DNA of 49,066 nucleotides from Trichoplax sp. H2 (Eukaryota): contig NOWV01000001.1 in the NCBI GenBank assembly GCA_003344405.1, forward strand, positions 1,612,001 to 1,661,066, given 5' to 3'. A program made the translations under genes and the position numbers. The notes beneath the pieces were generated by a model. The model worked only from the letters and a program-made list of their open reading frames with translations. It did not search any database and was not told where the DNA came from. Within the stretch, counting starts at the first letter, position 1. Every line of letters begins with the position of its first letter. This document shows, one piece after another, positions 17,501 through 44,038 of the stretch.

Positions 17501-17648
17501 ACCTAGTGGATACTACATGAAAGTATTTATGACCTAATCACTTCTCTAAATATAAAACTAGGCAAGCATAGAAGAGTCGAAACCAGTAAACGAGAATGGA
17601 ACGAAAGAAAGAAGTAGTAGAAGTTCTTATTACGATTCCAGTGTTTGA
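14504..17648 (+). pseudogene. Gene C: four-TM family paralogue with apparently disrupted exon 2 (pseudogene or exon-2-skipping gene); ends in DSSV
   Basis: Exon 1 14504-14680 (gccATGg; MELHAKRRLDRNLGQLIRYSIIQLICGIACLSCAI...AGV|gtaagt), exon 3 17137-17337 (PLTFQILNTGLNIPLWMTVVISAWNY...ALK|gtaagc) and exon 4 17562-17648 (ASIEESKPVNENGTKERSSRSSYYDSSV*) are intact and homologous to gene D. The best exon-2 candidate, 16063-~16131 (ALICMSIYNN*HRSPSLTIFNKE), has an in-frame TAA and a poor donor. Confidence 0.6.
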
Positions 17649-19866: not shown

Positions 19867-19874
19867 AATGATTA

Positions 19875-22659
19875 TTATCTGACTAAGGCGATGCTAGTAT
19901 AGTCTGGTGGGGCTGATGCGCGCTCACATTGGTGGCCATTGTTGACATCATGATATGAAGGTGGCGAAACCCTGCGAAATTGATGATTCCTTATTCTTGC
20001 ATGCTCGAAACGAGTCGTTGGGGATACCGTTGTTGTGGCGGCTTGGGTAGATTGTTCAATCCTGCTCATTTGATATGACGTATTTGAAGTTGAATCCTAA
20101 ACAGTGTTACAATATCTGATTCAATCCAGTTTTTGATCGAAATTATTTTATATAATTGAAGTAGGCTCCTTATTAGATATCTATTTCATTTAACAACGAC
20201 ATTTTTAAGTGATCCATATGTGAAACACATGGATCACTTTATTAATTAATTATTGAATTACCGGTGCACAGTGTAATGCTTTTTGCAGTATCACATTGCT
20301 GGCCCCAACGACGATAATAGCGGCAGTAGCACTCGTCAGAAACAATATATTAGCAATAAGAAGGCCAATGAAGGATCCAGGTATCGATCTAAAATTCCAC
20401 GCGGTCAAAACAAGAGCCATAGCAGGCAAAGTAATTTGTGCAAGTAGTACTACTTGAAATCGTCTTGGCTGTAGGATATTTTAAGATAGCAAAAAAGTGA
20501 GTTTATGCAGTATACTTAATTGGTCTCTCCAAATTTCTAGTTATCACTACGTTGAGAATCATTAATATAACTAATGAATGAGCAGCAGAATTGCGTTAGC
20601 GCTGATCTATTAGATAACCTGGAAAATACTGCAGTTATTAACTCTACTAATAATATTATCTTCGCCGTAGCTGACGTACCTCGTTCAAGAAGAAGCGCAA
20701 ACGATTTCTTCCAGCAAAAGTAATCAGCATTTGCGTACTGATGATTACAATCTGAGCAAATATAAAAACAACACCGAAAATGATTAATATAAGCGTGTGT
20801 ATTTAATTAGAAGAACATCGACAAGTGCCTAGTGAAATTGCAATACGAATGATAAAATAGACCAAGGCCTCCTAGGAGGTATATTTTAATTTGACAAGAC
20901 GATCTAATTTCAACAGAAATTGTTTTCTACAAGGCAAGGGTATACGGTACAACCTACTGTGTCTAAACGCAATTGTGTACGTAAAAACAAGTAAACGGTG
21001 TCCAAAATGTGTCCGTTCAGTTGACTGTTGGTATGAATTGATGGCTTATCACATGTGGAAAATTGTTGGCCTAGTATTATTCATTGCTAACCCTTGGTGT
21101 ATTTTATCCATTTAGAACGATTGCGTCCAAGGATGTTATGAAGGAGACTAGTTATCCTGCTTTTGCATAGATGAATTTGATTGAGGTATTGATTCGAAAA
21201 GAATACTGTAACGTGAAGTCAAGTAATATATTGTAGATTGATTAATATAGCTACAATTGAAACTATCTTCATTGTGATCGAGGAGTAAAGTAGGTTGGAG
21301 TTTTTACAACTACTTTATTCTGATCAAGTACTCTTAAGGCAATCAAACAGTGCTATTCAAGTAAAATCTCGACTAATTGTAATGAATCATCACGAGTTGG
21401 GATGATAATACTATAATTAGTAGTAGTCTGTGGAAAACCAATACTAGTATACCATGATAACAGAGCAGAATATATCAACATGACACCCGAACAATAACAA
21501 CAAGAGGCGCTTGATCGTCAAGGTAAACCGGCAGATGAAAGTGCTTGAGGATACGATCGATCCATGGTCAAAGTAGCAAGACTATGGTCATCCTTACGTC
21601 GACTAACACTATTTTAATAGGATTCTACCGTAGCGGTACTACAACAGGTTGATCGATCGAAGGAGAACAGTCCGTGTTGGCAGTTTTCCACGTCGTCCAT
21701 TCTCTTTCCAATACAATTTCCCTAGTCAATTTAACTACTTTATCCTGATCAAGCACTCGTACTTGTGATGAATAATCATCAATTGGGATGATAATACTAT
21801 AATTTGTAGTAGTCTGTGGAAAACCAATACTAGTATACCATGATAACAGAGTAGAATATATCAATATGACACCCAAATAACAACAACAAGAGGCGCTTGA
21901 TCGTCAAGGTAAACCGACAGATGAAAGTGCTTGAGGATACGATCGATCGATGGTCATCACTATGTCGACTAGTACTATTTTAATAGGATTCTACCGTAGA
22001 GGTACTACAACAGGTTGATCGATCGAAGGAGAACAGTCCGTGTTGGCAGCTTTCTACGTCGTCCATTCTATTTCTAATTCAATTTCACTCTTGAATTCAA
22101 CTACTTTATCCTGATCAAGCAAGCACTAGTACTTGTAATAAATCATCATGAGTTGGGATGATAATACTATACTAGCATACCATGATAACAGAGTAGAATA
22201 TATCAATATGAAAACCGAACAACAACAACAAGAGGCGCTTGATCGTCAAGGTAAACCGACAGATGAAAGTGCTTGAGGATACGATCGATCGATGGTCATC
22301 ACTATGTCGACTAGTACTATTTTAATAGGATTCTACCGTAGAGGTACTACAACAGGTTGATCGATCGAAGGAGAACAGTCCGTGTTGGCAGTTTTCCACG
22401 TCGTCCATTCTATTTCCAATTCAATTTCCCTCGTCAATTCAACACTACTTCTACAAGACTTGGACAACTCGACAATATTGCTTACCGCGACAGCAGCGAT
22501 GTACTGGAAAGCGATCGTGTAATCAAATGTATAGGACAGAAAATCGCACATAATCGCACATACTAAACACGTTATTCCAAGGCTTAACATTGCGATACCA
22601 TATCGAATCGATTGGCGGACGCAGTAATCAAATTGGAGAGCATTGCTACCCGAATTCAT
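19875..22659 (-). CDS. Gene D: four-TM family protein, 224 aa, tail with two PPxY motifs
   Basis: Minus-strand exons 22659-22486 (MNSGSNALQFDYCVRQSIRYGIAMLSLGITCLVCAI...AAVA|gtaagc), 20751-20680 (IVIISTQMLITFAGRNRLRFFLNE|gtacgt), 20468-20262 (PRRFQVVLLAQITLPAMALVLTAWNF...HCAP|gtaatt) and 20096-19875 (DSTSNTSYQMSR...VSPPSYHDV...SAPPDYTSIALVR*). All phase 0, canonical AG acceptors. Confidence 0.85.
21308..22448. repeat. Tandem repeat array (~3 copies of ~340-390 bp) inside intron 1 of gene D
   Basis: Anchor CAAGAGGCGCTTGATCGTCAAGGTAAACCG at 21501, 21887 and 22229; block GGTACTACAACAGGTTGATCGATCGAAGGAGAACAGTCCGTGTTGGCAG occurs three times. Confidence 0.92.
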
Positions 22660-23036
22660 TGCAAAATGGATGCGAAAAGTTTGCAATCTTTCCTAAATTG
22701 GAGTTAGAAGATGGCTCATGACTCAAGTCTGTGATTAGTATAGCAAGATGACGGACTGATATTGACAGTGAATTGTATGGTCGCTCGCTGGTACTTGGGC
22801 AGTTGTTGTCATGTGGGGTTAGTCGATTATGGGCGGTGGTCGCGATGCTATAGTAAGTACAGGCTACTGCTTGTGTCATGTCATCGTGATGAATCACTGA
22901 CTGGTTATGTTGAAGAGCGTGTTGCGATACGAAATCGTTTGAGATACTTTTTATGCCGTATGTAGGCCGAATGTTGGTGTACGTATGCGTACATCAACAG
23001 TCAATCAAAATGAGTGAATGCTACATCATACTGTCT

Positions 23037-24560
23037 CCCCATAGTAATCCTTATAAATGGATTGCTTTAGTATTTTTCATTATTCACGCCATATTTCTAG
23101 AAGTATTGACTATTAAATACTAGATCAGTTTATATGAGATGTATTTCAAGTTGCTGGCTAAAATTAGTCGATGTTAAACGTTTTAATCGGAAAGATTAGA
23201 GTGCGTCAAGAGTTGTGCGATTTTCTCAGTATAGTGTAGCAAATGCTTCATATATGCTGATATTAAACGTGTAGAATTGCAATACGAAAGTAAAGTGTAT
23301 CATACTGTTAAGACACTATGTCGATGGAAAGTGTTCTTTACCAATAGTATCTCCCAATACTAATCCTTATAAATTAATTGCTTTAGTATTTTTCATTATT
23401 CACGCCATATTTCTAGAAGTATTGACTATTAAATACTAGATCAGTTTATATGAGATTTATTTCAAGTTGCTGGCTAAAATTAGTCGATGTTAAACGTTTT
23501 AATCGGAAAGATTAGAGTGCGTCAAGAGTTGTGCGATTTTCTTAGTATAGTGTAACAAGTGCTTAGTGCATGCTGATATTAAACGCCTAACATCGTAATA
23601 CAATAAAAAAAGCGTATGATACTGTATAGGACACTATATGCTTGCAAAGTCTTCTCTACCAGTTCTATCGCCCAATAGTAATCCTTATAAATTAATTGCT
23701 TTAGTATTTTTCATTACTCACGCCATATTTCTAGAAGTATTGACTATTAAGTACTAGATCAATTTGTATGAGATGTATTTCAAGTTTCTGGCTAAAATTA
23801 GACGATGTTAAACGTATTCATCGGAAAGATTAGAGTGCGTCAAGAGTTGTGCAATTTTCTTAGTATAGTGTAGCAAATGCTTGATATATGCTGATATTAA
23901 ACGTGTAGAATCGCAATACGAAAGTAAAGTGTATCATACTGTTAAGACACTATGTCGATGGAAAGTGATCTTTACTAATAGATTCTCCCAATACTAATCC
24001 TTATAAATTAATTGCTTTAGTATTTTACATTACTCACGCCATATTTCTAGAAGTATTGACTATTAAGTACTAGATCAATTTGTATGAGATTTATTTCAAG
24101 TTGCTGGCTAAAATTAGACGATGTTAAACGTATTCATTGGAAAGATTAGAGTGCGTCAAGAGTTGTGCAATTTTCTTAGTATCGTGTAGCAAATGCTTGA
24201 TATATGCTGATATTAAACGTGTAGAATCGCAATACGAAAGTAAAGTGTATCATACTGAACAGGACACTATATCCATTTAGCAGTTCTGTTTACCAATAGT
24301 CGTTGATTGCTTTGGTATTTTTTCATTCCTCACGCCATCTTTCTAGAAATATTGACTATCAAATACTAGCACAGATTGTTATGAGATGTATTTCAAGTTT
24401 CTGGCTAAAATTAGACTTTATTAAACGTATGGATTGGAAAGATTGGAGTGCGTCAACAGTTATGCAATTTTCTTAGTAGAGTGTTATGCATGCTGATATT
24501 AAAAGTGTAGCCTTCTATGCACGACAGTATGTCGAATTGTCGATGCAAAGTGTTCTATGC
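23037..24560. repeat. Tandem repeat array, ~316-318 bp unit, 4 near-identical copies plus a degenerate fifth
   Basis: Anchor TAATCCTTATAAAT at 23045, 23361, 23679 and 23995; GGAAAGATTAGAGTGCGTCAAGAGTTGTGC repeated; diverged copy at ~24300-24560. Confidence 0.95.
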
Positions 24561-26558
24561 CATCCGACCAGTGCTGATGATTCGGATTGAGTAATTTTTG
24601 TTACGCAATCCTAGACTAGAAAGTTTTTCTACCAGTCTACACAGGCAATGATCAGCCCGTTTGGCTTGGTTATTGCCAATGATGCAAAGTATTTCAGCAA
24701 ACTAGTAAAGGAGAGACTTTTGAGGAAACCCCATGATATTGCCACTTTACGTGGAAAAGGACTAAAACCCTGCCTGCCCCACTTGAAAATATTGTAATCA
24801 AATATCCCAAAATAACTGAGAGAAAGTTGGGGATGAGAACGGTCGTTAGCAATGAGTTGGATGAAAGAGGAAGACAGACTTGTGGATGAGTGTCTGGATG
24901 ACTTAGTCCTGGACTGGTAGCCATGTTGAAAACAGCTCGAAATTCCCAGTAGTGTAGTTGGTAGCACTGTCCACTGCATTGGCATCGGAAAGGATTCTTT
25001 CAACCAGTCCGTGTTCCTGCCTTGGACTCTGTCAAGAGTCAAGCCATCATCGACTTATTCCATGCATAGACCCAATGGAGTATAAATGAATTAACAGCAC
25101 TACAGGCATTGAATTCAATTTAGCCAACTACCATGTTGTTGATCATCATCATCACTGACTTCATTGATGAATCATTGATGGATCGTAGGTATATTCTAGT
25201 TCTGCCGACTGCCATCAATAAATGGATTGATGTCTATCGGCTTTCTGGAACCAAGGCCATCTTCATTTGAGGAGCGGTAGTCCAGGGTAGCCTAGCATGG
25301 ACAAGTCGGTGAGCGCTACGCTGACTAATACTTGCTAGGCTTTTGAATTATTCAAGCGGTCTCCATTAAAATCAGGCCGCCAAAACAACCTTTTGCCTTT
25401 GCTCTAAATGATCGATTGAGCACGCATACAAGGCCGACAAACTACGGCTACCGTATCCGATGGCAGCAACCATTGGAGATGGTTGCTAGGCTAGCTCCAC
25501 CGCATACGGACGGCGGCACTCCGTCGCCATAGGACCCATCGGCCTTACCTTTGCCTGTAGACGAAGGGGTTTAACAAAAGGTAGAGTAGAGTAGTAGTCC
25601 ATAGCAGGACATCTAGCCATCGCCAATAGCTATATTAGTAGCATAATCAACTTGCGTGTAGTAATTGACGAAGAAAACGCCAAGCACAACCCCAACACTT
25701 TTGGCTATTGCCTTCCTTCTATTCCAATTAATTAGTAGACCTTTAATTGACTCGCCACGTTACCAGTAGCATCACGTAAGTATATCCTATGTTTATTCCG
25801 GCTTGTAGAAATTAGAATCAATAGCGGGTATCCATCACGAGATAGGATTGCTGAGTGATGATGATGATGATGAGGCAAGTTGGTCCATTTCGATCCTAGT
25901 GCCTAGTGGAGAAAATCATTAAACCCTATTTGGATTTCTTTCGCCTTTGCTGTATAAAACACAAGCTGTCAAATGGACTAGTTGTTAATTGCATTACATG
26001 CGTAGCAGTCATCGCCATGGGACTATTTTTCAATTGGAGAAGAATAGGGGAGGAAAAAAATTAGTCTTGATTAACTACATACAGTACATTGTAAAATAAA
26101 TAAATTATACAGGGAATATCAAAGTAATAGACAAGAGTGCTTCCTATATCACCCTAGTGAAATTCGTTGTCAATCGTTTTAAAAGGCCTTTTTTGAATCC
26201 AACTCATTCCATTAGCGTACAATCATGAACGCCAAGAGACAAAATTGATATCACGCATTTGGATTCAATATGGTTGATCCATATCGATCGATAGTCTACG
26301 TCTAATTGAAATAAAAACTTAATTTTAATTGCAATTGGTAGGATCAATCAATCAACGTCGTCATGTCTTGACGTTGGGATATCTTTACCCATTAAAAATG
26401 GGCGTCTGTTACTTCTCCTTCATAAAGCTATTGAATTATACAACCATTTCAACTCATTTCGTTCTATTTTTTCTATGCCTAACTATTCTACTTGGTTTTT
26501 TTTTTTACAGTTTTCAACAGTTCTCCTACTTCCAATCAGCTACACTATCTCTCAAAAA

Positions 26559-29556
26559 ATGCCTATCCTGGTCAATAACGCAGAATTTTATCAACGATAC
26601 CGCCAGCAAATTGATGGCATTCGAAATTGTAACATTGCCAAGCTTCTCTTCAGTTTTTGCTGTTTTGCCAATTGTATCGCCATAGCAGTCTTAATTCGTT
26701 ATCACAATCAAGCCTTTATCGTCATCCCTTTCATCGGTAGTATTATTGTAAGTTGCAATGCTAGCGTAAGGAAATTGAAACGAACTGGATCATCAAATAT
26801 CATTTTCTTCTCCCCTATTTGCCAAAGTAAAACTTTTCCTATCATTTAGTGACGATAAAAGATTCACCAGTACTGTAGCTAGCATGGATGGCACTTTTCT
26901 TTCAGGCAGTTGACATCATTTAGGCTCAAAATGGCTTCTTCTTTATTACCGTAGATTGTTTAGTACACTATGCATTTCTTAGAAAGTTCGTTCAATTAAT
27001 CCTATGATCATAAAGTACAACTGTTATCAAAGTTGACTTGTATCCTCCATTGAACTCAACCTTACATAGTTCTCAAGCTCTTGATACAGTTATAAAAGAA
27101 CTGATTAGGATCGATAATTATTCTTAGCTCTAGAAATTGTTAGCTTGCAGTTAGTTAGCCAAACTCGAGTTGTAAATATTCAAACCAATAGATAATAGGT
27201 TGTCATGAGACGCCTAATTTTACCTTACCATTGTAGTTTTTAACATATACAAAGCCATTTTACGCCAGTATTCGTTATACGACACAATTGCCTTAGGTCA
27301 TTTCTTGAATATACTTTGTTATTCCAACACTTAATTACTGTAATACCAAGGTCTATATCTTGAATCAAAAATATGATCTATTTCAGTTGGTAAAGTAGAT
27401 TACATTCTGTTCGACATCGATGGGAAGTTTCTATCAATTTTTATATTAGGCTACCGATCGTTCGACGATACTTTTCTTCATTAATTTTAATTTTATAACC
27501 CTTTAAGATTTTTATTTCTCTGTGCGTGTCGATGTGCTGTGGTAATAATACGTGTATACTATACTTTATGGTGGCATGAATTAATAATTTCTACCGTAAG
27601 AGATGAATGTTTGCAGCTCAAATGAAAGTCATAATCATTTGTAAATGAGAAATCTATAAATTCAAATTGGTATCAGGAACTACTTTTACATAGTCCTAGA
27701 CAAAACATCTAATTTAAAGGAGTCTAGCGATTGAAACGTTTAAATATCTATCAACCTTAAGATAATGTCAAATGAACGATATTCAATACGGAGTAATGTT
27801 ATCTATTTCATTCTCGTCGTCTAATCATTCTAGGCTTTTGGTTCATCAATTTTGAACATTGTCACATTTAGCTCAGAACAGCGAATTGCTACATTCACCA
27901 AAAATGTAAGTATTTTCGAACAATATTATTTACCAGTTTCAATTTTACCTTCTATCTAACTATCCGTGCCATCAAATAAAACGATACCGAGTTTATTTTT
28001 GCTATATTAATGGATATTTTCTCCTTACCCATTTTTCACTCGAAAAGAATAATAATAATAATATTGCTTAGCATATACGCGTATATTATTTCTCGCTTTC
28101 AATTTCCTTGACAGAAAGCATTATAAATTTTTTAATGATGATGAGACGGTATTGATAGTTTTTGAAGATGAGAAGCAATGTGCTTCTCTTCAAAATGGAT
28201 GACTTTATTGTTAGTTTTGATATTTAGTATGCAATTAGATTGATTTCACAATAGCTATGGTGCGATACCAACCTTACATGCCCTTAATTTAGTCCACGCT
28301 TGTTGATTAATTTCCTCTTTTTTTTGCAATCTTGTGGTTATACGAGTATTTCCATTAACTTAGGCATAAAATGCTAATTCTACTGTAGATACAAAATTTC
28401 TCCCTAGTTAGCGTAGTCAGATCTCAATGTAGACGCATATTACTTTATCGAGTACAGTAAAGTGCACTAAAGAAGCTTTTCCTTGGTCAGCATTGAATCC
28501 CTGTATGAATTGATTCGTAACAACCGTATAAATTCGTTAATAGACAGTAAAATAGGAAGAAAATAAATTTTCAAATGTTGCTCTTTCACCTTGGTAACTG
28601 GCTTAGCGATTTTTACTCATATTGGAGATATCGTAGGCGCATTCTCGCAATTCTACTTGGACTTTAAGATCTACTCCCAACCACTTGACTCAATTTCTTA
28701 GACAGTTTCAGTTATTAGGGTTGATTATTAATTAGTACTATATTTAAATGTTTTCGTTAGCATTACTGATAGCCATTGGGACCCATATTCAGTCAAGAAA
28801 GACTGCTGATCCTACTGCCAACGCCCAGTTCTATGTAGCAACTTACAGTACAATGCTATAGTTTCTTACTGAGAACACTCATACATTTATCCTATCTTTT
28901 ATGCCTTTAAACAATTTGATGGTTTAAAATCTTAATTTTTGAGTAATAACGACATATCTTTACTTTTATGACGTGTTCATTAGCCTGTAGGATACAGATA
29001 TGGCGTGTCTTTTTCTGATATACCTATTGCAGTTGCCTTTGGCATGTATATCTATCTTTCAATTGTGACAAGTTCATCCTATGCTGCGATCAGAGCTCCA
29101 ATTATTAGTTTCACTGTTTTGGCCTTATTGGTACTCCTAATGTCAACTGCTTATGAAATCACTATGAAAAGAATAGTCGCTTTTGCGATCGTAAGTTTTA
29201 TTTTAATTAGACTATATCGCGGAAATTAGCAGCTGTAAAAATTAAATTCCATATTTTGTTCTAAATTTACATAGGTGCATTCGTCTATACCTACAACTGT
29301 AGTACCAGGCGCTACTGTAGCTGTCACCCAGACTGCTTATCCTCCGAACTACCCACCCAATCAGTTTACCAATCAGTATACCAATCAGTATAGTGCCAAT
29401 TATGGTCAACAGTATCCTCCACCAGCCGGCCAGGTACCACAAGGCATGATAGCTCCATCCACAGCGAATATGCAGTCATACCCTGCTTCACCATCACAAT
29501 TGCCACCAACATACACTGATGTCCAGAAACAGGCACCACCACCGGATACAAAATAA
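26559..29556 (+). CDS. Gene E: four-TM family protein, 249 aa, Pro/Gln/Tyr-rich tail with PPNY and PPTY
   Basis: Exons 26559-26747 (MPILVNNAEFYQRYRQQIDGIRNCNIAKLLFSF...IPFIGSII|gtaagt), 27834-27905 (AFGSSILNIVTFSSEQRIATFTKN|gtaagt), 28984-29190 (PVGYRYGVSFSDIPIAVAFGMYIYL...FAI|gtaagt) and 29275-29556 (VHSSIP...YPPNYPP...LPPTYTDVQKQAPPPDTK*). A poly-T acceptor at ~26510 suggests a 5' UTR intron. Confidence 0.9.
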
Positions 29557-30986
29557 GAATGTAATATTCTTCGAAATCATGTGACAATTCATTGATATCT
29601 TTCGGATGTAATGTTCTACAAATTATGAATTAGGATAGGAAAGATATTTCTGGATTCTCTCGACGTTTCTAAAAGTATTTGGAAACCTTAAATATTCTAC
29701 TGAGGAGCCATAATATTCATTACGATATAATATATTGTGTTGTTTGTAGTATTTTCTAGCTTCTGTTAGAATAACCTAAATATACGTATAAGCTGGTGCC
29801 TTTTACTCGGTATTAGAAGTGTTCTATATCGGGTCACTAATTTATTATTACAAGTAATCATACTAGTATATTTAAGCTACTAAAATCGTTATGTTAAAAT
29901 GTTTGATTTTCTTCTGCCGGTCTAACTTTCTACATATATAGTATACGATACTTTGAATATCTAATTAAAGGATGCGAAATCATTCTGAAAATCTGTAAAG
30001 ACAAAAGAGTGTCAGTATACTCATTGCGTAGATAAATTTGCCATTAAATGACATCTTATTAGTTCGCAGTTGATAGACGAGATCCTCACTACCTATTTTA
30101 ATTGCCATTTCTAAAGTACGCATATCTTCTGCTCATTGATCGGCTTTGCTATTTCAGTAGATGGCATACTAACAAAGAATGTTAAACACAAGTATGGCAG
30201 CTATTAAGTTGTCGCGGTAATCACCTTACTAAACCAGCCATGCGGCTATTAACATTAACAAGATAAAGCACTACTACTGTTAGTTGTACCTCGCATATTG
30301 CTATATCATTTACTGGCTAAAAATTGGTTATTTACTCATTTTATTTAACGGTAAATACAATGTCCAAGGCCAAGGATAGTCGTGGAAGGGAGAAAAATGA
30401 TTGGAGCAATTTGCTTTTAATGGGTTCACCTTATATGCAGTTACCTTAAATTTGATAATACGAGTAGTAACAACTGGTTCAATTGAATACGCTTATAATA
30501 AGAGCATAATGCTTGATGCCAAACTGAATACTTTTACTGGCACGTAATGAAACTATGACGATGAACTGCAACTTTGATGAAGCAAGAATATTGTATATTT
30601 ATCAGTAGTATTTACAATTAGTCGAGATTCGGCATTTCGCATAACCTACAATTCATTGCAGTCTACTGTAGCAAGGGTTAACAAAGGTGCGCGCAAATTT
30701 ATTGTACACAGTCGTCCGCGACGAAACAACGACTTAAATAAAGCATGCAAGGAGCACACTTTCATATAATTGATTCTAAGCGGGGTATTCATATACGTCT
30801 AGGTGCACTAGCTGTTATGTAAAATATACGATATAAAGTAAGTATATATCAGTCATGGATATTAGAAATTTATATAATTATATAACTATGCTCGTAAAGG
30901 TATAATCTAATTTTAAAGCCTTAACAGTTCTAGGCAGTTTAAACTACCTAGAGCTACTATCTGAAATGTAATAGTAATAATTGTTA

Positions 30987-33900
30987 GATACGGTACTGAT
31001 GGTAGTTTAGACGTAGTTATAGATCTTTCATTATACATTTACTAGTGATATACGTAATACGGTATTGCGGTATGAGATAGCTGCATATTATTGTACACGC
31101 TGTTCTTACCTATTTACAGCACTAGTTGAGATATCAGTATAATAAGTTAGAGTAAAGTTAAAAGGTCTATGATAGGTCTAAAGTAAATCGTTAGGGATAA
31201 GCAGGTCATTATTTAATTCTATTTATTTAAGGCAGGGAGTGAGTGTAAGAGAATAGGTACATAGCTGTGAGCTTCTCTGTAAAAGCTACTAGCCGTGATG
31301 TATAATCACAAATAAAAACTCGTTACAGTAATAGTTATACCTGCCGGAAATTGGCCGCGAACAACAACTACAATAGTTGTAGTTGTCTGGACTTTTATTA
31401 GACAGTAGCCTACAGAAGCAGCAACAGTTAGTAATAAAAGTCCTGGCAGTACAGCTCTGAAGAAAACTATATAAGGTTACAGCGTATATAAGGACGTGAA
31501 CTAATCAAATAGCTATAGTAAAGTGAAATAGGTAAAGTGCGCAAGCTTATCGTGTATATGGCGGAACTAACTAACAAGACAAATGTATAAATATAGCTAT
31601 TATAATGTAGGAAGCAAAACGAAGGAAAATATTCATAAACGCTAATGAGTAATGAGAATAGCTTACTTCTATATAAGGAGATTTTTACTGTACAATGGGA
31701 TTAGAGCATAAAGTGATTTTCACAATATAAGTTGCTAAGTATAGATCATACATATAAGGAGTTAAGTAAGAAGACAAGATTGATATCGTTTGTTTAAGTT
31801 AGAGCTGTGAATTGCTTACAGAATCATCGTATGACTAATGAATCGTTACGATAACAAATTTATTTTATAGGTTAGATACATAACTACTTGATCAGCCAAT
31901 TTTAGGAATCTAAACATCGAAAGTTGATCGCTTTTTATACTTATAACCGAGAATTTAATAAAAGAGTTCTGTAATATTGGGTAGCAGTTTTAAAATTATC
32001 TCTCTCTGATTACCAGGATCAATTAGTGAATTTGTCAGTAAGCATGCAGCAATTGGCTCTTCTACGATTCATATGTTCAATACAATAACAAGCAATAGGT
32101 TCTTATTATTACATAAGTGTAAAGGTTTACTTGATCTCAGATCAAAATTACTTGCGAAAAGTTTAGCAGTGATATTGTGTATTAAGACTACACTTACTGA
32201 AGTATCTATAGATACTGAGGAGATAAAGCGAAATAGCGATTAATCTTTCATCGGTGGCTGCTTCTGTCGAAGCAAAAGTTGCGAAGTTACTAATCGTTAA
32301 TAGAGGCGAAGCACACGTAGAGTAGATATACGTCACTTTGTTAAAGATCACCGTATAGTATACAGTAAATACGTTGTATTGATTGTTTTACAGTAGATAA
32401 CTTGCCGTTATGGTTATAGGTTATAAAACTAATTCATTTTCCAGTAAGGACAAGTGAACTAATTAGTTAGATACCTAATCTATAACAGACCTCGACGGCC
32501 AGATCGTATTCTGATCAGAACTGATCTCGTGTTATATGCGTGCTGTAAAGTATTTTACAGTAGAATCCAAAGCTATACAGATTTAGGTCTAATAATATAC
32601 TACAGCAATATCGTTAGTTAGTATTAACTTCTAGTATATACTGTGTAGCCGCTCACAAATATAGATACAAGGTATAAAAACGAGTACTTTTATAATAAAG
32701 AGAGTTCATTATTTTACCGTTTACGTGTGTCGAGTCGATCTACATATATCGTTTCTTCTGTGAAACTTAAGGAAGAAGTTTCTAGTTGTCACGGAGAACT
32801 ACAGTGATCAAGATCAGTAGTTGGAGATAGAAAGAGACCCAGAAATATCTGCGATATACCTTTGTCGCATGTGTATATACATTTTGTTAGTGACGATATA
32901 CTAGTATCAAATTGGGTAAATTTACATTGAGAGAAGAATTACAAGAATTACCGGAAAGTTCAATTTAGCTGTATGATGATCACCGGCTTGCTCATTACGA
33001 GAATAGCTATTTTATTGGACCGAAAATGAATGATGGCAAGATCGTATTTTAAGCTGTACATAATTTACTAATGTAGAGGCTATTGTTACAAATATATTAC
33101 TTTAGATATTTTCTTAACAGAAAATTTGTAGTTTACATCACTCGTATACATGCTCATCATCATGTATACTATAACCTGTCATTATGCTGTAGTGTATAAT
33201 TCGTAGTAAAGAAATACATGAATGATATTGTTATTCCTGTGTAAGTGGAGAGGTGATCAATATCGGACCCTACAGTATTTTGCTTTCGTTGCAAAACACG
33301 GATACCCAATGATCACAATTATCAACAATAGTTGCTTAGATAACAACAAATCTTACCTCTTTTAAAACTACTTTATAATACCATACAAATTGAGTCGGGT
33401 GAATGAATCTATTGCTATATACACAGCAGGTGTAGTAAGTCGATTTTTAAGGGCCCACAATAAATCAGTCTAACTGGATTAAAAGCCGAATTGAGCTTTA
33501 TTACAATAAAAACCAGCCGTAACTGTAATTACAACAAACTATGAACAAGAAGAACTCTCGATCTACTCGTTGCATACGCTTATAGATCGTAGTGCATGAC
33601 CTATTTGGTAATAGTAGTAACGTTATCACGCTTCCAAGCGTTAAGCACGGACATTGAAAGAACATATTTTACCGGGACACGAGCAATAACTAATCGCATG
33701 AAAGTACGCAAGTATTATAGTCTACGGTAGTGGATATTCGTAATTCTATACTTAATTAAGAATTTAACTGAAGTACGAAACTCACGGCACTACATTCACC
33801 CCAGGCATCTAGAATTTGATAGCATTAATTCATATATAATTTTAGGAAATTCTATCTACAAATCTTTAGAATTGTACGATTCATTATTATACGTATAACA

Positions 33901-34570
33901 ATGACACATCACAATAATAACATTTAAATCACTGGCTATTACTAATGATCGTACAATAATCTAGACCAAGCATCAGCATTTCCGTTTTGCGCCCATTTTC
34001 GATATTGCATGGTAGTCATTGGCTCACGTAACCATAGGAATAAAGGTCCATTGCAAAATATGAGTAAAATAAGGAACTGTTACTCGGAATAACCAATAGT
34101 TTATTACAGTGAGTGTATATTCTCTTTCAAAAGGCGAACGTAGCAACGGCCCCGATAATACTCATGGCAAGCCTTGGAAACAGCTATCCGATAATAATAA
34201 TCGGTAATTGTTGTAATGGTACTTTGCCAGGTTTTGGTGTTACCCTTTGGCCAACATCGCAATCTTTACAATATGCTGCTAAAGTGGAAGACTGGTAGTG
34301 CAGGTTCATCGGTCAATCGCCTTAAAATCTTGAATTTTCGGCTACGGTGATTATGCTAACAGTCATTTCTTGTGAATCGGCTTTGGGGGAACCGCCTAAA
34401 ATCACGAGATCTCCGAATACGTCATTGAACCTTATTATACTGTACATCTGGATTACGTCATGGTACTTTATGAAATGGAGTTACAGTACGATCGAGGTGG
34501 TTTACACTGTAACTCAGCGATTTTGCACTGTTTTTTTTTTTACATACACTGTACAGTACAGTACAGTACA
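30987..34570 (+). repeat. Copy 1 of a diverged collinear segmental duplication (spacer between genes E and F)
   Basis: Ordered homologous anchors: 30987/44312 (GATACG.TACTGATGGTAGTTTAGA), 33241/46580 (GTAAGTGGAGAGGTGATCAATATCG), 34301/48481 (CAGGTTCATC), 34408/48995 (GATCTCCGAAT.CGTCATT), then CAGTA repeats at ~34550/49055. Confidence 0.8.
32874..33084 (+). repeat. 211-bp direct repeat, copy 1 (upstream of gene F)
   Basis: Near-identical, ungapped match to 38642-38852 (TATATACATTTTGTTAGTGACG...GTAGAGGCTATT) with about five substitutions. Confidence 0.92.
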
Positions 34571-34871
34571 GTACTGTACAGACTGTACTGTACTGTAGTC
34601 TACAGTGTATAGTGTACAGTACTGCAGGCCCTGCTACTGTATTGTACTGTAGTTCCCCATACTGTACAGTACAGTACAGTACAGTACTGTACAGTGTATA
34701 GTGTACAGTACGTTGATGAAACTGTGCTTCTGTAACACCGCAGAACCAATATGCCTGGCAGAAGGTAATTGACAATTTTTAACAGAATGAATTGATTCAT
34801 TGTGTTGAATTGTTACAGTGTACTGTACACTGTACAGTGCAACCAGCCTGTACCCTGTACTGTACAGTACT
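34547..34871. repeat. Low-complexity (CAGTA)n/(TACTG)n palindromic satellite upstream of gene F
   Basis: Runs such as GTACAGTACAGTACAGTACAGTACTGTACAGACTGTACTGTACTGTAG, with alternating orientations of the same pentamer. Confidence 0.88.
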
Positions 34872-34979
34872 GGAAGCGGTTATAAATAAGCACGAGAAGC
34901 GTCATTTCCGGTTGCTCCCGCAGCGCGCAACTTGGAAGACACCTTTTCTCTCGAATTTCTCCGACGCGATTGGACAAAA

Positions 34980-37661
34980 ATGGCTGATCAAGACGTTTCA
35001 CTGAATGAGCAATTCCGCAAACGTATTGCTGGCTATATGAAAGTCATTCTCATATGCAATAGTTGTAAATTAGTTTTATCGATTGGAGCTCTGGTCGTTG
35101 CAATTATGATGACAGTAAACTTTCCCTCCATAGCAGCATACTATCACGTGTTTCCGTTGGCCGGTGCTTCAGTGGTAAGTGTTCGCCATCGTTACCATGC
35201 GTATTACGGTAGTTGACCGTGACGATAATGGCGTCATAGTGATGGTGCAATAGTACAGTACAATAACGGATCCACCAACAGCTACCTACCTTGAACTTAC
35301 TGCAAGTGATCAAACTCATTGGCAAAACTACAGTGCAGCAGGAATATGGCTTGCATTCTTTTTGTGAATTTCATTTCACATAAAATGGAATTTTGCCTTT
35401 TTCCTTGCATTTTTTTAGAAGCATTACGAGTACGCGTGTATATGTCATATATACTCAGCACAATTGGTGCCAATGACTGGACATGATTCACTTTGAGATG
35501 TTATGTTTTCAATTACTTGGCGTGGCTGTATAGAGTGTTAGGATCATATCGGATATAGCACAGTACTGTACTTTAGATATGAGTATAGGATTTGATTTGA
35601 GCCAACTGACTGTAAAGTGAGTAATTTAGACTTGAATTTGAAATAAATATGGATAATATACAATAGATATGTTCATATATACTGTAGATATATCTATATC
35701 TAGATATTAATTTACAGATTAGCATGCTTGCAATGATTTCGCAAAGGACTCTTTCCTCGGCTTATATAACGGGACTCTTTGCAGTCCTTGTGAAATGCGA
35801 TGTTTATTGGTCTGTGTGTGCTTCAAATTCCATGGTGCGGATACAATGCTGGTCTAAATTCTGTCATAGGACGGCTCTCTTTGATGTTGGACCTTTAATA
35901 ATTAAGCTAATAAAGTACTTAACCTTAGTTAAATCGTCTTTGTTAGTTTTTTCTAAAAGTCTCTACAATAATTTACTCAACCGAGCGGTGCAAACCCGAT
36001 TTGGACTAAATCGGCTATGCGCCGCTCGGTTTTTCACTGATCTTCACCATGAAATACAGTACTACATCGGTAGGACTGTTTCAGCGAAGTGTACAATGAA
36101 TTTAGCGCAAAACAAATGGGGCTAATGCTAATCTACTCATATCTCTCTATACTGGACACTGAGTGTGCAGTACAGTACTGTATGTATGTTTTATTACTAT
36201 ATTTTGCGTTTCAGATTCGATCGCTAACAAATGTTGGAACAGTCTACTGTACTCTACAGTGTACAGGATATTGCAAGTTTAAAATATACCTGAGTTTATA
36301 CTACTAAGCGGACATGGTTAATTAATTTAGGATATTCATATAGATACTTTACCGTTTCCATGTCTTTCTTTTTAGTAATCTTTGATGTGTATTCCATTGT
36401 AACATGATTCTGCTAGTAGTAAATGAAGCAACAGACCAAATTACATACAAAACACTGGTACATTAGGATGGACGTGGCAGTCTGTTTTGCTGACTCCGAA
36501 TATTTCAAGCAAATTGCCCCTACCTACAGTGTAGTACAATTGTTGCATATACATTGCAATCAGAATAGATGTCAGCTGATACGCAACTATTAGCTCATCA
36601 AGCAAAGGAAGCACGAATGACATTTTAGTAAGAAAGCAATTTCTATACTCTGGTACAGTATTTCATGGCATATTTATTTAATTATCATTTTTTACGGGTT
36701 AATCGTCATGACTACATACAATACTGTACATGCACTAGTTCCGTAGATAACAACAGTCATAGCTTCCTTGATGCCAGTAAATCTATAATGCTTACGGGGT
36801 TTTGTCTAAATATGAAACGGGATTTACCCGACTACTGTTATCTTACTGTGAACTATTGTACTGTACAATGTACAGTAGATCCAGCCATTTTGAAATTTAG
36901 TCTTTCGTACACCTCGCTGAAACTACGCTGCCGATGCATTATGTCCACTGACCGTATGTGTATTCCCTCTTAAATTGCAATCTTTTAAAATTTTTTCTCG
37001 CAGAGTTGTTATTATCTATTTGGTATCAATAGCTAGTCTTGACGTAACGTGCAGTCATTGCAATTCTCGGATTTTCATCAACTTTTTTCGTCAATTGTTA
37101 ATTTTTAGACAATCTTCGCTTCAGCCGCTGTTGTATATGTGTTCATTTCGGAAGAAAGAAAAGAGCATTTCATCAGTAATGTAAGAATGTCAATATAATG
37201 TAAACTAGCTATCACAACATTTACATCTAACCGTAAATTGATGTATCTTGCAAATCTGATAGGTAAACCTATACCTCGTAGGAACAACTGCAGGCGAGAT
37301 ACCGATGGCTATCGCATTTGCTGTAAATTTGCATTATATTTCTACTTCTTATTTGGACAATACACTGGCTGTAGTGTACGCTGGCATTTATGCCCCTATA
37401 TCATCTTGTATAGTTGGAACTTCGATATGGATGCAAAGAGTTAAAGCTGTCAAATGGGTAAGTCGTTTTTGATGCGATTGTAAATCAAAACGGTCTACAA
37501 AACTTGAATCGAATTGTGAACATTTTTTGTACATATTTAATAATATAATCATAATCCCTCCGTAGCTCATGCTGACTAGTTCGGTCAGGAATACTGCTTC
37601 TGCAACTGCCGATCGATTCCCGCCAGGATATGGGTTTAGTACTTCTTCGCCTTCTGTCTAA
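34980..37661 (+). CDS. Gene F: four-TM family protein, 185 aa, short tail with PPGY
   Basis: Exons 34980-35174 (MADQDVSLNEQFRKRIAGYMKVILICNSCKLVLSIG...FPLAGASV|gtaagt), 37109-37180 (TIFASAAVVYVFISEERKEHFISN|gtaaga), 37263-37457 (VNLYLVGTTAGEIPMAIAFAV...AVKW|gtaagt) and 37566-37661 (LMLTSSVRNTASATADRFPPGYGFSTSSPSV*). All phase 0; exons 2-4 are absent from the ORF track. Confidence 0.85.
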
Positions 37662-38641
37662 CGGAATTTATATTTTATCTATCGACTCATTCATTGCTTG
37701 TTAATGCTAAGTTTTGAATCATTTCTATGCTGATCAATTAATCAGCGTATAAATATCCAAAGCTTACGAATATGATTTGTTAACGTAGAAATGATTTTTC
37801 ATATTATAACTTGCATCACATTTTGTTTGAAAAATCATGCATAGTACTATATGTATTTTTGGCCGTACCACGTTAAATCGCTATAGAAAGATCATCAATC
37901 TTATGGATTTTGCCTTGCGAAATAAGGACATTTAATAACTTTTTACCGTTGTAGTTTTACTCGTAGTTAATGTAGTACGATCCGTTGATTAGTTATTTCA
38001 TGATAAAGAAAAGCCATATGCGCATGTAGGCGCTTTACTTTTGGTCTTGATATTATTCTCCTATATTACAATAAAATCGACATGTTCAATATTCATAACA
38101 GCGTGAATAGCAGCATTATAAAATGTACTGCATTATGTACAGTACATTGATAAAATATATTATATTACCTCCGTACTTCGGAGCATTGAGTCTACTAGTC
38201 TTCGTAATTTGCATAGGAACCAGTCGAACCCTTGCTCGTGATACTTGATATTCTATATGCTTGTATTGTAGTTTTACTTTACAGTACATATTACTGTCAC
38301 TACTGCACCATGACAGATTAGTTGTATAGCCTTAAAAATGAAGTTGCAATCGTAATTATGTAAGTCTCGGTTTGAAGTAATTTAATGAGGATTTACTATC
38401 CATACTATACCACCACAAGCGACCCTGTTACGCACCTAGCTTTATAGATGTGGGTGCGCTTTATACGGCCAAACAGAGAGTAGGTGTATGCCAGAAACAC
38501 AATGTTGCAGCGCTTGACGTTGCTTAAATTTATTGTAATTTAATATGCGATATACTAAAATTATATGTAGAAATTTCTATGTGCAATTAGTGGACGTTAC
38601 TTTAAAATTAGGCCGATAATGCTACGCGGGTTGTATACATA

Positions 38642-38852
38642 TATATACATTTTGTTAGTGACGATATACTAGTATCAAATTGGGTAAATTTACATTGAGA
38701 GAAGAATTACAAGGATTACCGGAAAGTTCAATTTAGCTGTATGATGATCATCGGCTTGCTCATTACGAGAATAGCTATTTTATTGGACTGAAAATGAATG
38801 ATGGCAAGATCTTATTTTAAGCTATACATAATTTACTAATGTAGAGGCTATT
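38642..38852 (+). repeat. 211-bp direct repeat, copy 2 (downstream of gene F)
   Basis: Near-identical to 32874-33084. Confidence 0.92.
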
Positions 38853-41774
38853 ATTATTAATTTATTCCTACGAGTAAGGAATATCGAAAATTTTTCATTA
38901 CTATTTAAACTGATTGATAGAGGTAATACCGCATTTGCTAAATGAGTCGAAATAAAATATTTTCTATAATATTTGAAGAAACTTTTGAAATTTAGAATTA
39001 TCACACCAATAGGTGTTACAATGGATTATAAAGATAACGGGCATCATGCATTAAATTTAAAGTTAGGTATAGCATATAGATTACTCTGTATTACAAATAA
39101 ACAAATATATATACATGCTTGGTAAATACAGTTATAAAGCCTTTATAGTAAAATACTACGACAGAGAATATCGTTCCTGGTACTCTCTATAAATTAAAAA
39201 GATGATATATTATAGTATACTGTACATTTCATGATATCTTTCTTTTATTTTCATAGACTATCAAAGAACTTAAATCGTCAGATAAAAAATATATTATCTA
39301 CAATAACATAGTAGTAAACGAAAATAAACCTTTTGCTATATTTGTAAAGCAGATTTCGTCATAGCTATCGGTAATAGATCAATTCCTAACTAGAATAGTT
39401 TTACTTTCACCGGTATGGCTATTACAGTATAATGGATAGCGGCAGGTAAAACCTCTATTTTCTGCTGACTATAAGCCGTAGCAATGATATGAATCAGATG
39501 GACAATATTAAATATTTGTTATAATCTGTCGATAAAATCTGAGTTAGTCTCTAAGTATAGAAACTTTCTTTCAATTTAAGATTTACATTTATAGTAACTA
39601 TAATGCGTAATGTTCTGAATAAGTGACTAACTTAAGATAAAACACGGAAAATCAACAGATTTATCAAACAAATAAAATTGTAATAACACTAGGATTAGTA
39701 GAGCACTTACAAAGATTATGCTTTTGAAGAAAAATTTCTATAGTTTAATGTAACTAGATAGAATCATCCTTGCCATAAAACTGCTTAAAAGTAAGGGAAA
39801 TTTGAAAACATTGTTAATTAGTCAGATGGCTTTAATCCGTTTTGGATGCTCATTAGGTACTTCTAACACCTACAGTACTTAGTTTTCGTCGTAGTTTTTC
39901 CGCAACAGAATCGAGTAATCAATTAATTCTTAAAGTATAATATTGTTATTAACATGAGATTCAAGTTATCCATTTTAAAATACGCCAGGAAAAACTTGAT
40001 GACACTAGTTTGATCAAATCTAGGGATGTTACATTGGATTAGAAACTTAATGGAAAGGTAATTTATAAGTTACTGCAAGTAATAGCATGGTTTATACTAA
40101 TAGTATAACTGAAATGTGAATTATAAATTATTCAAATAAATTAATCTCTATTATAAAATTCTCTTAATTGTAATAATCGAACACACTAAGCTTTATCTTA
40201 TAAGCAGAAATTAAGCCTGCAGTACATTTACATAGATATTGTTTTGATTAATTAATAACAATTGGAGCAATCAACGCTTTACCGTAGAATTTGACTATGG
40301 ATGTTATTTTCTGACTCGGTAAATAATAAAGAAATAGAATTGCCAAGTTCGGAGAATTACCAGATTAACTATGTGTATGATTATGATTTAATATTTCAAA
40401 GATTTCTTGATGTAAAATTTGATGGAAACCTTTTACGTACTGTATTTCCTTTCATTTATAATTGAGAAAAAATCTTCTTTCACGATGAATTAAGGTATCC
40501 AATGTTTATATCAGCATGTTGAAAGTCTACATCATGATGATGTTGAATTATAGTTAGTTCATACTCAAAATTGATAAACTTTTATGCAAATCGTTATTAG
40601 CTTAGTTACTTAATCAGTTAGTACTCTGGATTACTGTATGCAATTGCAACAAGTAGTTACACACAAAGATATAGTGTATACGAGTTCTTTTCAAAGTTAT
40701 TTATATTCATCTATTTTGAGCCTCCCGATTATTTGTCGAATACTCTTATTGAAATATAATCCTGCAATCCCTTATATTCTACTTCCATATGATGCGAGTA
40801 TATAATTTTAATTCTCAAATGCTTATACTTCGAACTTGTAGTAAGCTATAGAAAGGATATTATCCATATTTATCACATTTGTGATCCCATAACGGGGAAG
40901 TAACATTTTATACTCGTATTTCTATTTTCAGTCGCAACCTGTATCGCATTTAAACAGAAAGTTCGATAGAATTGCATAAGTAGATTCCACGATTTTTTGT
41001 TTTATTTGTACTTTGCAGTAGATTTATTACTCTTCAAGTACAGTCTATTACTTTAACCTCAGCAATTATTAATAGATGCAGCTAATAAATACGGTCATAA
41101 AAATACAGAAATAGGATGTCTATAGCTCTTAATGAAGTAACCATGGCAATATTGATTCAATTTATTTATTGAACGTACAGTATTATCAATCAACTGCATT
41201 TAGCCTATTGAAATTACAAACATGATGATTTGTCTACACATGATATTTGCATACGGTATGCATAATTATTTTGTCAGTCTACCCATAGCATGTCGTTAGT
41301 GTTGAGTTTAGGCTTCTGTAAAGCACTAAACCACCTCTGAGCGCATGGCTTTCACTCTACACTAGTACATTAGAATCCAGTCATCATTCTGCTATTAATA
41401 AATAAGACACTATTTCGAGTTTTCGTCGGAGGCCTTTCTTGCTATCGTATATTTTAATCTCTAGCAATTCGTTAAGCTGTCATTAAGAGAACGTTTTATA
41501 CGGTGCTTGACTTCTTGATTATCGCTTGATTCTATTTTCGGTAGGCTGATTAAAATTATTGATCAAAGATTTTCCGTAAACATTTTAAACACAAACTCAG
41601 CAGCTACTAGCTAGCTATAAATAGTAATTCCAATTACAATAATGCAATCATGTAGCTCAACTTTAATAGCAATTTAGACTCAAGATTTATGAATACATTT
41701 ATTATTAAATATTTCTGCCGTCTAATAATTATAATTTGTTTCTTATACGTTTTACTAGGCCGTAAAATCGAAAA

Positions 41775-44038
41775 ATGCCCTCTCCTGTCGTTATAAATGC
41801 AACCGATTTTTACACTCGATATCGGTTGCAGTTAGATAGCATTCGCAATTTTAGCATACTTAAGTTGCTCTTTTCAATCGGCTGTCTAATATGTTGTATT
41901 CTGTTGGCTACTTTCTTCACATTTTACTTTGATAACGCTTTTATTATAGTTCCTTTTATTGGTTGTAGCATAGTAAGTAATTATGATAACTAAAATTATT
42001 TTATTTTAATGACATCGAACGACTCTCTTATTAAATAATTACTACGGTTCGATGTCGATATTCAAAAAGAGCCAATTGCAGCCACAAGCTTTTAAAATGA
42101 ATCTGTAGGCTACGGATTTTGCATTATAAACTTACACGTACTGTATGATATTACTACAAGCGTATTCTCGAATGTGCTAGAACTGTTTCGGTGACATAGC
42201 TCTTAAATCTTTGATTTATTTATGTTAACCAGACCTTGCAAATTAACTTTAATAGTATCGTATTAGATAGTGATTCGTTAAATAAAATGTTGGTGCCTTA
42301 ACAATGACATACAACGCAAATAAGTACTTGAATGTATCGAATTGTACTAGACGTGTGAGTGTATCCATTTCTCTTAACGTAATTTCGGTACAATCTATAG
42401 TCATTATGATTTTATAAGTCTTCATGCAGCCAATTTAGTCGATTAAGATCTGTTTAACACATTTGTAATTACTAAAGTTACATTATAGGGTGTGTATATA
42501 CTATGATATGATCATTATTGACTATAAACTAATGACAGAAAAACGCTAAATTTTTATGTTTTAGACTATTCTTTCTTCCATCATGAACGCTTATATTTTC
42601 TCAGCAAAAACCCGCCTTGGTACTTTCTTGAGTAACGTAAGTAACTAATAATTTGTAGCATATGTTCTTAATATCTTCAAGCTATCATATGTATATTTTA
42701 CTGTTTTAAACAAGGCAATAATTATCATTAATTAATTTATCACCATAAAGTATCGTCATGTTTACTGTAACATGGTTTTATCGGAGATAAAGTTAACCCT
42801 TTCCAATTTACTCATATATATTTCGTAAGTAATCGACTATAGGAATCCTACATTAGCTCCTATACCTGAAGATTAATACGAATACAGTTGATCATTTCGT
42901 TATTTTGACCGCATCAATTTTGCTTAAAATAAGGATTTTATTTTATCCATTACAACTTGTTTTTAACCAACATTATAGATAACGATTTGTTACGTATCTT
43001 AATTTACATCATCTGATTATCTTGTAATAGATTCTTTAAGTAGAGATGATTCACTCACTAACTCTAGCCTATTAAATTAATCGATTTTGTACAAGTTTGA
43101 TAATGTCTGTGTTGGCAAAAATTCGGCTTTAATTTTTAATAATTACGTTATGATATAAAATAAATTTGATTGCAGTACAGAAACTACTTAAATTTACGAT
43201 AAGTATATTTTTGATCGGTTGAAATATGATCACTACTCTTACATTTAATTATTTCTCTTCACCTATAATAATCCTATATTAGATAGTACCGCAGCATTTT
43301 TTTCTTAGAGAATCACAATCGTTTAAATCTTTTAAATTAAATTTTATGTTTTTACTTGGTCATAAGCCGGCAGGATACCGATATTTCATTGCTGCACTTG
43401 ATCTTCCTCTTGCAGTGGCTTTTGGCATGTATGTTTACTTATGTATTAATGCGCCAAGTGACAACAGGATAAAGCCAACAATTGTCAGTTTTACAGTTCT
43501 CGCCTTCTTAGCACTGTTATCGGCAGGCTATTTCGAGACAACTATGAGAAGTGTATACATCTCGGCATATGTAAGTATGGCAGTGTTTCCTTTATAAAAA
43601 CGGTACATGGTGATATATTAGAAAGTATTGAATGCATTGCTAGGTATAATATACGCATTTTTCAAATACTCGTATATGACCAAGAATTATCATTTTATGG
43701 AGAATGACTTTCTGTGACATAATATTTTAAAGCAAAGTTATCCTGGATAATCATGATTCACTATTAAGTGAGGTATTTTTATTGTCCTTGAATTATAGCT
43801 AAGAGCAGTTCAGATACGGAATCGCAGAAATCAGCGTCGTTCTCGAAATACTAATACGCCTACCAATACCAATGCAAATGTTGAAAGTAGTTATGTTGAC
43901 AATTATAGTAATCCTCCGGTCGCTAACCCGAATGCAATGCCGTCTCGATCTGCAGTTGACGAGCCACCAACAGCCCCTATGGATCTGCCGCCATATGATG
44001 ATGATGATGATGATGATGTGAAGCCATTAGTTCCATAA
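41775..44038 (+). CDS. Gene G: four-TM family protein, 237 aa, tail with PTAP, LPPY, poly-Asp and DxxxLV
   Basis: Exons 41775-41972 (MPSPVVINATDFYTRYRLQLDSIRNFSILKLLFSIG...VPFIGCSI|gtaagt), 42565-42636 (TILSSIMNAYIFSAKTRLGTFLSN|gtaagt), 43367-43570 (PAGYRYFIAALDLPLAVAFGMYVYL...SAY|gtaagt) and 43799-44038 (LRAVQIRNRRNQRRSR...DEPPTAPMDLPPYDDDDDDDVKPLVP*). Closest paralogue of E. AATAAA at 44046. Confidence 0.9.

Follow-up and report, generated by a model that had tools for sequence, protein, structure and literature searches.

In Trichoplax sp. H2, contig C1 ends in a stretch of 49,066 nucleotides (hereafter the window) that carries four genes, D, E, F and G, that belong to a tandem family of predicted four-pass membrane proteins and end in tails, each encoded by a fourth exon, with PY motifs of the form [LP]PxY. 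The pattern of these motifs is statistically solid in an array that is larger than the preliminary description of this DNA had recognized, and that represents a lineage-specific expansion not described before. We suspect that the tails dock the WW domains of NEDD4-family ligases, and on balance we lean towards the view that the proteins are membrane adaptors that bring about the ubiquitination of their partners. That the tails bind a WW-HECT ligase in one capacity or the other, as adaptors or as cargo, seems to us highly probable.

PY motifs are enriched in the tails of a tandem array

All six motifs named in the preliminary description, at least one in each of the D, E, F and G tails, lie in frame at their mapped coordinates (Table 1), and the gene models bear out its tail length span of 31-93 residues (73, 93, 31 and 79 for D, E, F and G). 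Its generalization that all exon-4 tails keep a PY motif goes too far: B and C, members of the same array, lack [LP]PxY, leaving four of the six window genes positive. When each tail was shuffled 20,000 times with its composition preserved, the chance of a motif was 0.015 for D, 0.27 for E, 0.013 for F and 0.08 for G (0.13 for K, a paralogue outside the window). The joint probability for all four D-G tails is 4e-6, and four positives out of six, with B and C counted, has a p of 8e-5. An LPPY frame inside intron 1 of C (16070-16258) was treated as chance.

The array runs on into contig C464, whose first 336 bases repeat the window end. Core exons led us to models of 19 genes in the sequence covered, which comprised 246 kb from C1 with the window as part of it, 170 kb from C464 and 50 kb from C330. 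They are S, R and T upstream of the window, B-G within it, H-L, M and N on C464, U sitting 140 kb upstream, and the C330 pair V and W. When the covered sequence was scanned with a profile, no additional core exon came up below E 0.03, and a candidate gene near 105-106 kb of C464 was left out because it gave no consistent model. Fifteen tails were modelled (those of I, K, L and U with our own models as sole basis), and H was left out of the counts as a recent duplicate of F, which gives 14 non-duplicate tails. Several of the outside tails first came to light in a list of PY-bearing frames, which makes the set less than fully blind; membership was then fixed by the core exons, and misses were counted. 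On this footing, [LP]PxY is present in 11 of the 14 tails against 1.07 expected from shuffles, and the tails together hold 22 motifs against 1.13 expected, an enrichment of about 20-fold. Seven of eight tails of paralogues outside the window are positive (p 3e-8), as are five of the six outside genes linked to C-H by profile alignment (91% probability, reversed decoy 0.1%; about 4e-6 from the per-gene values). Two or three motifs occur in 7 of the 11 positive tails, with D, E, I, J, K and S as multi-motif examples and F, G, M and N as single-motif members; J has an additional PPSY in its N-terminus. Counted over all modelled genes, 12 of 19 have the motif, so that it is a majority trait of the family and not a universal one. 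Stretches of 2.5-6 kb downstream of exon 3 in C, L, R, T and W contain no sense-strand [LP]PxY, and those of B and V hold one motif each in an apparently non-coding frame.

Several features of the motifs point to selection. The fourth residue of [LP]Px-Z words in the 14 tails is Tyr 22 times against 2.4 expected, and Phe, Trp and His 0, 0 and 1 times; the reversed word occurs four times over the same tails, and 4,240 residues of matched polar control windows, taken from other long open frames, are free of the motif. In 9 of the 11 positive tails, which are 31-210 residues long, the last Tyr is at most 13 residues away from the C-terminus (p 4e-4, with a threshold chosen post hoc). Strain differences spare the motifs: one of the two tail differences in G is a Leu-to-Pro change that turns the LPPY of H2 into the PPPY of T. 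adhaerens, and two in-frame 12-nt deletions found in RNA contigs of E directly adjoin its motifs without disrupting either. Table mmc4 of PMC10580291 lists orthologues from Hoilungia and Cladtertia, among them Hhon_g00011 and PlH23_008533-5 in OG_2920 and Hhon_g00006-8 and PlH23_011524-5 in OG_4600, with OG_7 for the motif-less B. Our own searches for distant orthologues, two of which scored only the top 8,000 candidates, found only Trichoplax proteins and tail-less single-exon fragments, and P0005 is a chance low-complexity match.

Predicted topology, candidate ligases and the role of the tails

Our topology method imposes four hydrophobic segments on each of the 19 proteins (segment-window means 1.3-3.2), and the side of the membrane is read from charge by the positive-inside rule. 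Lys and Arg make up 153 of 872 residues (17.5%) in the N-terminal flank, middle loop and C-terminal flank as compared with 27 of 503 (5.4%) in loops 1 and 3 (p 1e-11), with an inner excess in every one of the 19 proteins. Both termini, and the PY tails with them, are therefore predicted to be cytoplasmic. Luminal or extracellular tails, which the preliminary description considered as a way in which its proposal might fail, are not what the charge bias predicts for any of the 19 proteins.

Candidate partners are encoded in the same genome. WW and HECT matches occur together on contigs C508, C397 and C208, and also on C206, where the WW match is below cut-off; on C508 the gene comprises exons for C2, four WW and HECT, and one of the HECT exons is closest to WWP2/ITCH. 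These four loci agree with the four NEDD4-subfamily genes listed for Trichoplax in Table 1 of PMC2837046. The earlier proposal that the family is under selection to recruit NEDD4-type ligases thus stands in part. Selection for a WW-domain ligand in the tails is well supported by the enrichment, the Tyr specificity, the recurrence in paralogues that the proposal had not seen, the C-terminal position, the charge bias and the presence of C2-WW-HECT genes; the NEDD4-type partner and the role as adaptor or cargo are what we infer. According to the adaptor view, the divergent four-helix core would choose partner membrane proteins and the cytoplasmic PY tail would tether a NEDD4-family ligase. Multi-motif tails would in addition relieve ligase autoinhibition, as NDFIP2 does, and single-motif tails would need a partner to activate the ligase, by analogy with PMC12720080.

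A number of observations weigh against this interpretation. The p-values rule out compositional chance and do not give a count of independent events, because paralogues share ancestry, and the strain comparison is weak because T. adhaerens and H2 tails are nearly identical (0-2 residue differences). No motif is seen in 7 of the 19 genes, namely B, C and L, whose tails are modelled, and R, T, V and W, whose tails are not resolved. The residue at Y+3 is hydrophobic in 10 of the 22 motifs against 17.5% expected (p 0.002), so part of what is selected could be an overlapping sorting signal of the YxxPhi type. Many genomic WW matches lie away from HECT genes, at least 10 contigs having a WW and no nearby HECT match. 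Finally, the PY tails are poor in lysine, with 18 in 1,076 residues (1.7%) against 6.3-7.6% in matched polar windows, but those windows were drawn from 11-29 open reading frames and not from membrane-protein tails, and the motif-less W and B tails are lysine-poor as well (0 of 90 and 2 of 81 residues).

The alternative that fares best is that NEDD4-family binding serves only the proteins' own sorting or turnover, the four-helix core being otherwise employed, for example as a receptor subunit or channel. The motif evidence applies equally to such cargo, none of the proteins is free of lysine, which often adjoins the membrane, and the YxxPhi overlap would fit a sorting signal. Lysine scarcity, which extends to lysine-free tails in D, F, H and M and to a single Lys among the 224 residues of D, argues for an adaptor over cargo only weakly given the composition of the W and B tails. 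It is also compatible with cargo because lysosomal sorting of LAPTM5 needs Nedd4 binding and not its own ubiquitination (PMC2064599). Against a cargo-only role, the two or three motifs in most positive tails resemble those of activating adaptors (PMC12720080). We regard cargo as a possible but rather unlikely sole function, and the two roles are not exclusive, since ENTREP performs both.

Less likely still, to our minds improbable, is a partner outside the HECT ligases: a WW scaffold, the AP-2 mu subunit recognizing YxxPhi, or SH2 proteins that dock on phosphorylated Tyr. Scaffolds of the YAP, WWOX, KIBRA and MAGI types carry WW domains, and YxxPhi is the rule for AP-2 binding. The WW matches remote from HECT and the enrichment of hydrophobic Y+3 residues would both be explained in this way. 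Nevertheless, YxxPhi or SH2 docking alone is insufficient because the enrichment sits in the two residues before x-Tyr and because 12 of the 22 motifs lack a hydrophobic Y+3, and the published multi-pass proteins with C-terminal PY motifs bind NEDD4-family ligases in the accounts available.

A further question is how the tails came to differ. The tails had been called unalignable. Of the six D-G pairs, five fit this description (raw p 0.046-0.76; 0.34-0.70 after masking of the motifs); the exception is E and G, whose tails are collinear over about 60 residues up to and including the last motif (raw p 0.003, masked 0.04). The tails had also been said to behave as a swappable phase-0 module, a claim that finds no support here: phase 0 is common to all three introns and not peculiar to exon 4, and tail likeness follows gene kinship, strongly in F-H (tails 68% identical, cores 56%) and weakly in the sister genes E and G (tree support 97/95). 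Mobility of exon 4, whether by exchange among paralogues or capture from unrelated genes, is suggested by the E-G cores being 47% identical yet the tails only 27%, and by the resemblance of the start of the G tail to that of the non-sister I (p 0.004 raw, 0.019 masked), one of the best non-sister pairs together with G-J (0.009 masked). Such similarity is unremarkable because it is expected among about 100 pairs, and none of it survives correction; in exon-4 DNA no match besides F-H stands out (next best z 4.6 for I-L and 3.7 for I-J). Segregating in-frame indels in E suffice to erode alignability and, together with its 12-nt repeat, offer a simpler route to divergence. Exon exchange therefore strikes us as very improbable, and the tails have likely diverged through slippage and indels while keeping a C-terminal motif. 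The core tree is well supported only for E-G, F-H, EG-FH, V-W and M-N, and PY-bearing genes do not clearly group together on it (41 of 500 shuffles are as low).

Chance in disordered sequence rich in Pro and Tyr, which is non-negligible for single tails such as E, K and G and may have produced incidental motifs such as LPIY in J and LPCY in I, is refuted as a family-wide account by the motif excess, the Tyr specificity, the C-terminal position and the empty control windows, and we give it next to no credence.

Gene models and neighbouring features

The six window genes B-G (D on the minus strand) are built alike, each with four exons, of which the second is 63-72 nt long, and three introns, all in phase 0; a phase-0 AG acceptor precedes each of the D-G tails. 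RNA contigs from four public runs were aligned to 26400-44200, the region of E, F and G, and those from three of the runs join all three introns of each gene with GT..AG ends where predicted, which shows that the three genes are transcribed; for G, RNA support for the last intron comes from one run only. The spliced model of D, which lies outside the stretch compared with RNA, is identical to NCBI protein P0017, and the E protein is listed as P0001, a hypothetical protein from Trichoplax sp. H2. NCBI C-termini match the modelled tails for 9 of the 10 genes compared, the tenth, H, being a record marked partial. For exon 3 of G the NCBI models P0007 and P0003 start at acceptor 43283, adding 28 residues, whereas RNA contigs from three runs use 43367.

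Table 1. Features of the PY-tailed genes and their paralogues in the window
Feature	Positions	Strand	Basis
D motif PPSY	19953-19964	-	in frame
D motif PPDY (Tyr 7 residues from C-terminus)	19899-19910	-	in frame
E motif PPNY	29341-29352	+	in frame
E motif PPTY	29503-29514	+	in frame
F motif PPGY (retained in paralogue H, contig C464)	37620-37631	+	in frame
G motif LPPY (PPPY in T. adhaerens protein P0003)	43985-43996	+	in frame
D exon 1 (ATG, predicted transmembrane segment (TM) 1, start of TM2)	22486..22659	-	spliced model = P0017
D exon 2 (72 nt; end of TM2, predicted basic inner loop)	20680..20751	-	model = P0017
D exon 3 (predicted TM3, TM4)	20262..20468	-	gene model and hydrophobic segments
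D exon 4 (73-residue tail, lysine-free)	19875..20096	-	gene model
E exon 1	26559..26747	+	gene model, RNA, P0001
E exon 2 (72 nt)	27834..27905	+	RNA joints
E exon 3	28984..29190	+	RNA joints
E exon 4 (93-residue tail; 12-nt repeat, two natural in-frame 12-nt deletions)	29275..29556	+	RNA
F exon 1	34980..35174	+	gene model, RNA
F exon 2 (72 nt)	37109..37180	+	RNA joints
F exon 3	37263..37457	+	RNA joints
F exon 4 (31-residue tail, lysine-free)	37566..37661	+	RNA
G exon 1	41775..41972	+	gene model, RNA
G exon 2 (72 nt)	42565..42636	+	RNA joints
G exon 3	43367..43570	+	RNA joints
G exon 4 (79-residue tail)	43799..44038	+	RNA joint, one run
Paralogue B (four-exon plan; 81-residue tail, no PY motif)	6821..8741	+	tail = that of P0015
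Paralogue C (four-exon plan; 28-residue tail, no PY motif)	14504..17648	+	last exon ab initio only

RNA contigs from two runs place an upstream non-coding exon of G within 41402-41765 (joint 41541 to 41765). Loose 5' letters of E transcripts at 26511-26521 match the window near 25746, suggesting an upstream non-coding exon there too, and 33496-34405, between E and F, is covered by RNA contigs and has no long open frame. D is ringed by tandem repeats: units of about 350 nt in its intron 1 (21150-22450), a 316-nt unit repeated 4.6 times upstream (23034-24484), and units of 154-206 nt directly past its stop codon (19166-19869). A 1.4-kb segment downstream of G (44897-46267) is 97.6% identical to one downstream of H (L009 3662-5023), which suggests a very recent duplication or conversion. 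Between L and M lie frames (L014, C464 about 33800-36800) that presumably resemble a hAT-type transposase. Near the start of the window, candidate gene A (2880-3468) is small, with two exons, one hydrophobic segment and a tail containing EDY and RRLS; a Pfam search gave no match for it. Provided that A corresponds to TrispH2_000676, A and its neighbour B belong to a common cell-type module in three placozoan species.

Family relationships and known systems

A predicted model of D from a 13-row alignment has four long helices (predicted local distance difference test, pLDDT, 60-84) and a disordered tail. Its fold comparison gave FceRI-beta (8k7t_B; Z 8.8, root-mean-square deviation 4.1, 139 aligned), chains of the dystrophin complex (Z 10.3-10.5) and soluble bundles (up to 11.6), scores at the level of generic four-helix bundles. 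Foldseek with the D model gave no match at E <= 0.001, a PDB sequence search with the same alignment reached a best E of 0.46, and a model of E built from its sequence alone reached only pLDDT 49, too poor for an informative fold search. Pfam searches with single exons and full proteins of D-G gave nothing over cut-off, including TMEM127, LAPTM (Mtp), NDFIP and PF04103 (CD20/MS4A-like; cut-off 27.9 bits), and B has a weak TMEM127 match (17 bits, cut-off 25.3); for PF04103 the D-G proteins have no match. The possible link to CD20-like genes comes from other genes of the modelled set. W matches the CD20-like Pfam family over cut-off (44 bits) and is named MS4A-like by NCBI, R matches below it (20 bits), and both have the same three phase-0 introns as the array genes. 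V and W are adjacent CD20-like genes on contig C330 (L011 1451-2347 and 5759-7964), and the W tail is a Gln/Pro/Met repeat without a PY motif. The match of W conflicts with PMC2826416, according to which MS4A-like genes are absent from invertebrates. Among the Atlas look-alikes, CD20-like clusters appear for both D and E at 0.80, and LAPTM5 for D at 0.76, as a lead only. Profile alignment of the CD20-like subgroup gave 14% with I-N (decoy 0.4%) and a non-significant 0.3% with C-H (reversed decoy 0.1%). Common descent with the CD20-like genes is plausible because of the shared intron plan and adjacency. We do not assign D-G to MS4A, and membership of the TMEM127 or ENTREP families is likewise unsupported, the likeness to them being a suggested one.

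The paralogues are spread over single-cell modules. Table mmc3 of PMC10580291 places S and N in peptidergic alpha, M in peptidergic kappa, G in cilia and B in a module of unknown cell type; E and H are in modules without an entry in its annotation sheet, and D, F and J are assigned to none. The T. adhaerens orthologues of E, G and H fall in pan-peptidergic, gland and fibre modules according to the same paper. By gene order, and thus with a presumed mapping of identifiers, C would belong to peptidergic alpha, K to ventral epithelium, L to fibre and T to pan-epithelial modules; none of the paralogues found in modules falls in a lipophil module. One possibility, which we offer as a speculation with the odds against it, is that a CD20/MS4A-like gene gave rise to a tetraspan NEDD4 adaptor repertoire partitioned among cell types. 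Divergent cores would pick receptors or channels, single-motif members would pair to switch the ligase on, and motif-less members would act as decoys. If this is true, it would suggest an ancient role of the MS4A fold in ligase recruitment, and the family would be a membrane counterpart of the fungal arrestin-adaptor repertoire. A CD20-like origin, if it holds, would bear on the roles of MS4A-like proteins before adaptive immunity.

The favoured adaptor mechanism, in which a membrane protein recruits a NEDD4-family ligase through a PY tail, is known from TMEM127, NDFIP, LAPTM and ENTREP. Literature searches, in a library short of most subscription papers, found nothing on placozoan PY-tailed four-pass proteins. 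With the CD20/MS4A proteins the family shares four predicted helices, both ends predicted inside, and the three phase-0 introns of the CD20-like W and R, but the clearest CD20-like gene, W, lacks a PY motif. NDFIP1/2 and LAPTM4/5 are likewise multi-pass proteins with two or three L/PPxY motifs that bind NEDD4-family WW domains, but the NDFIPs have three helices. Their motifs are N-terminal, unlike the C-terminal motifs of the placozoan proteins. ENTREP/FAM189A2 combines a CD20-homologous region with a cytoplasmic tail whose two PPxY motifs bind and activate ITCH (PMC8811627); it is single-pass with a 343-residue tail, whereas the placozoan proteins have four predicted helices and tails of 31-210 residues, and no sequence link between them and ENTREP/FAM189 (FAM189A1/B included) tested positive. 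The plan of TMEM127, a four-pass WWP2 adaptor with a cytoplasmic C-terminus and a PPxY at its C-terminal end (PMC7342019), is fitted by the single-motif members F, G, M and N, with their four predicted transmembrane segments and C-terminal motif; D-G differ in lacking a TMEM127 Pfam match and in belonging to a divergent tandem array of about 16 genes. What is new is the mechanism's apparent use across such an array spanning different cell-type modules. This suggests a concrete, testable function for a dozen unnamed placozoan genes, whose natural zero-, one-, two- and three-motif versions are a ready test set for the model of single- versus multi-motif ligase activation.

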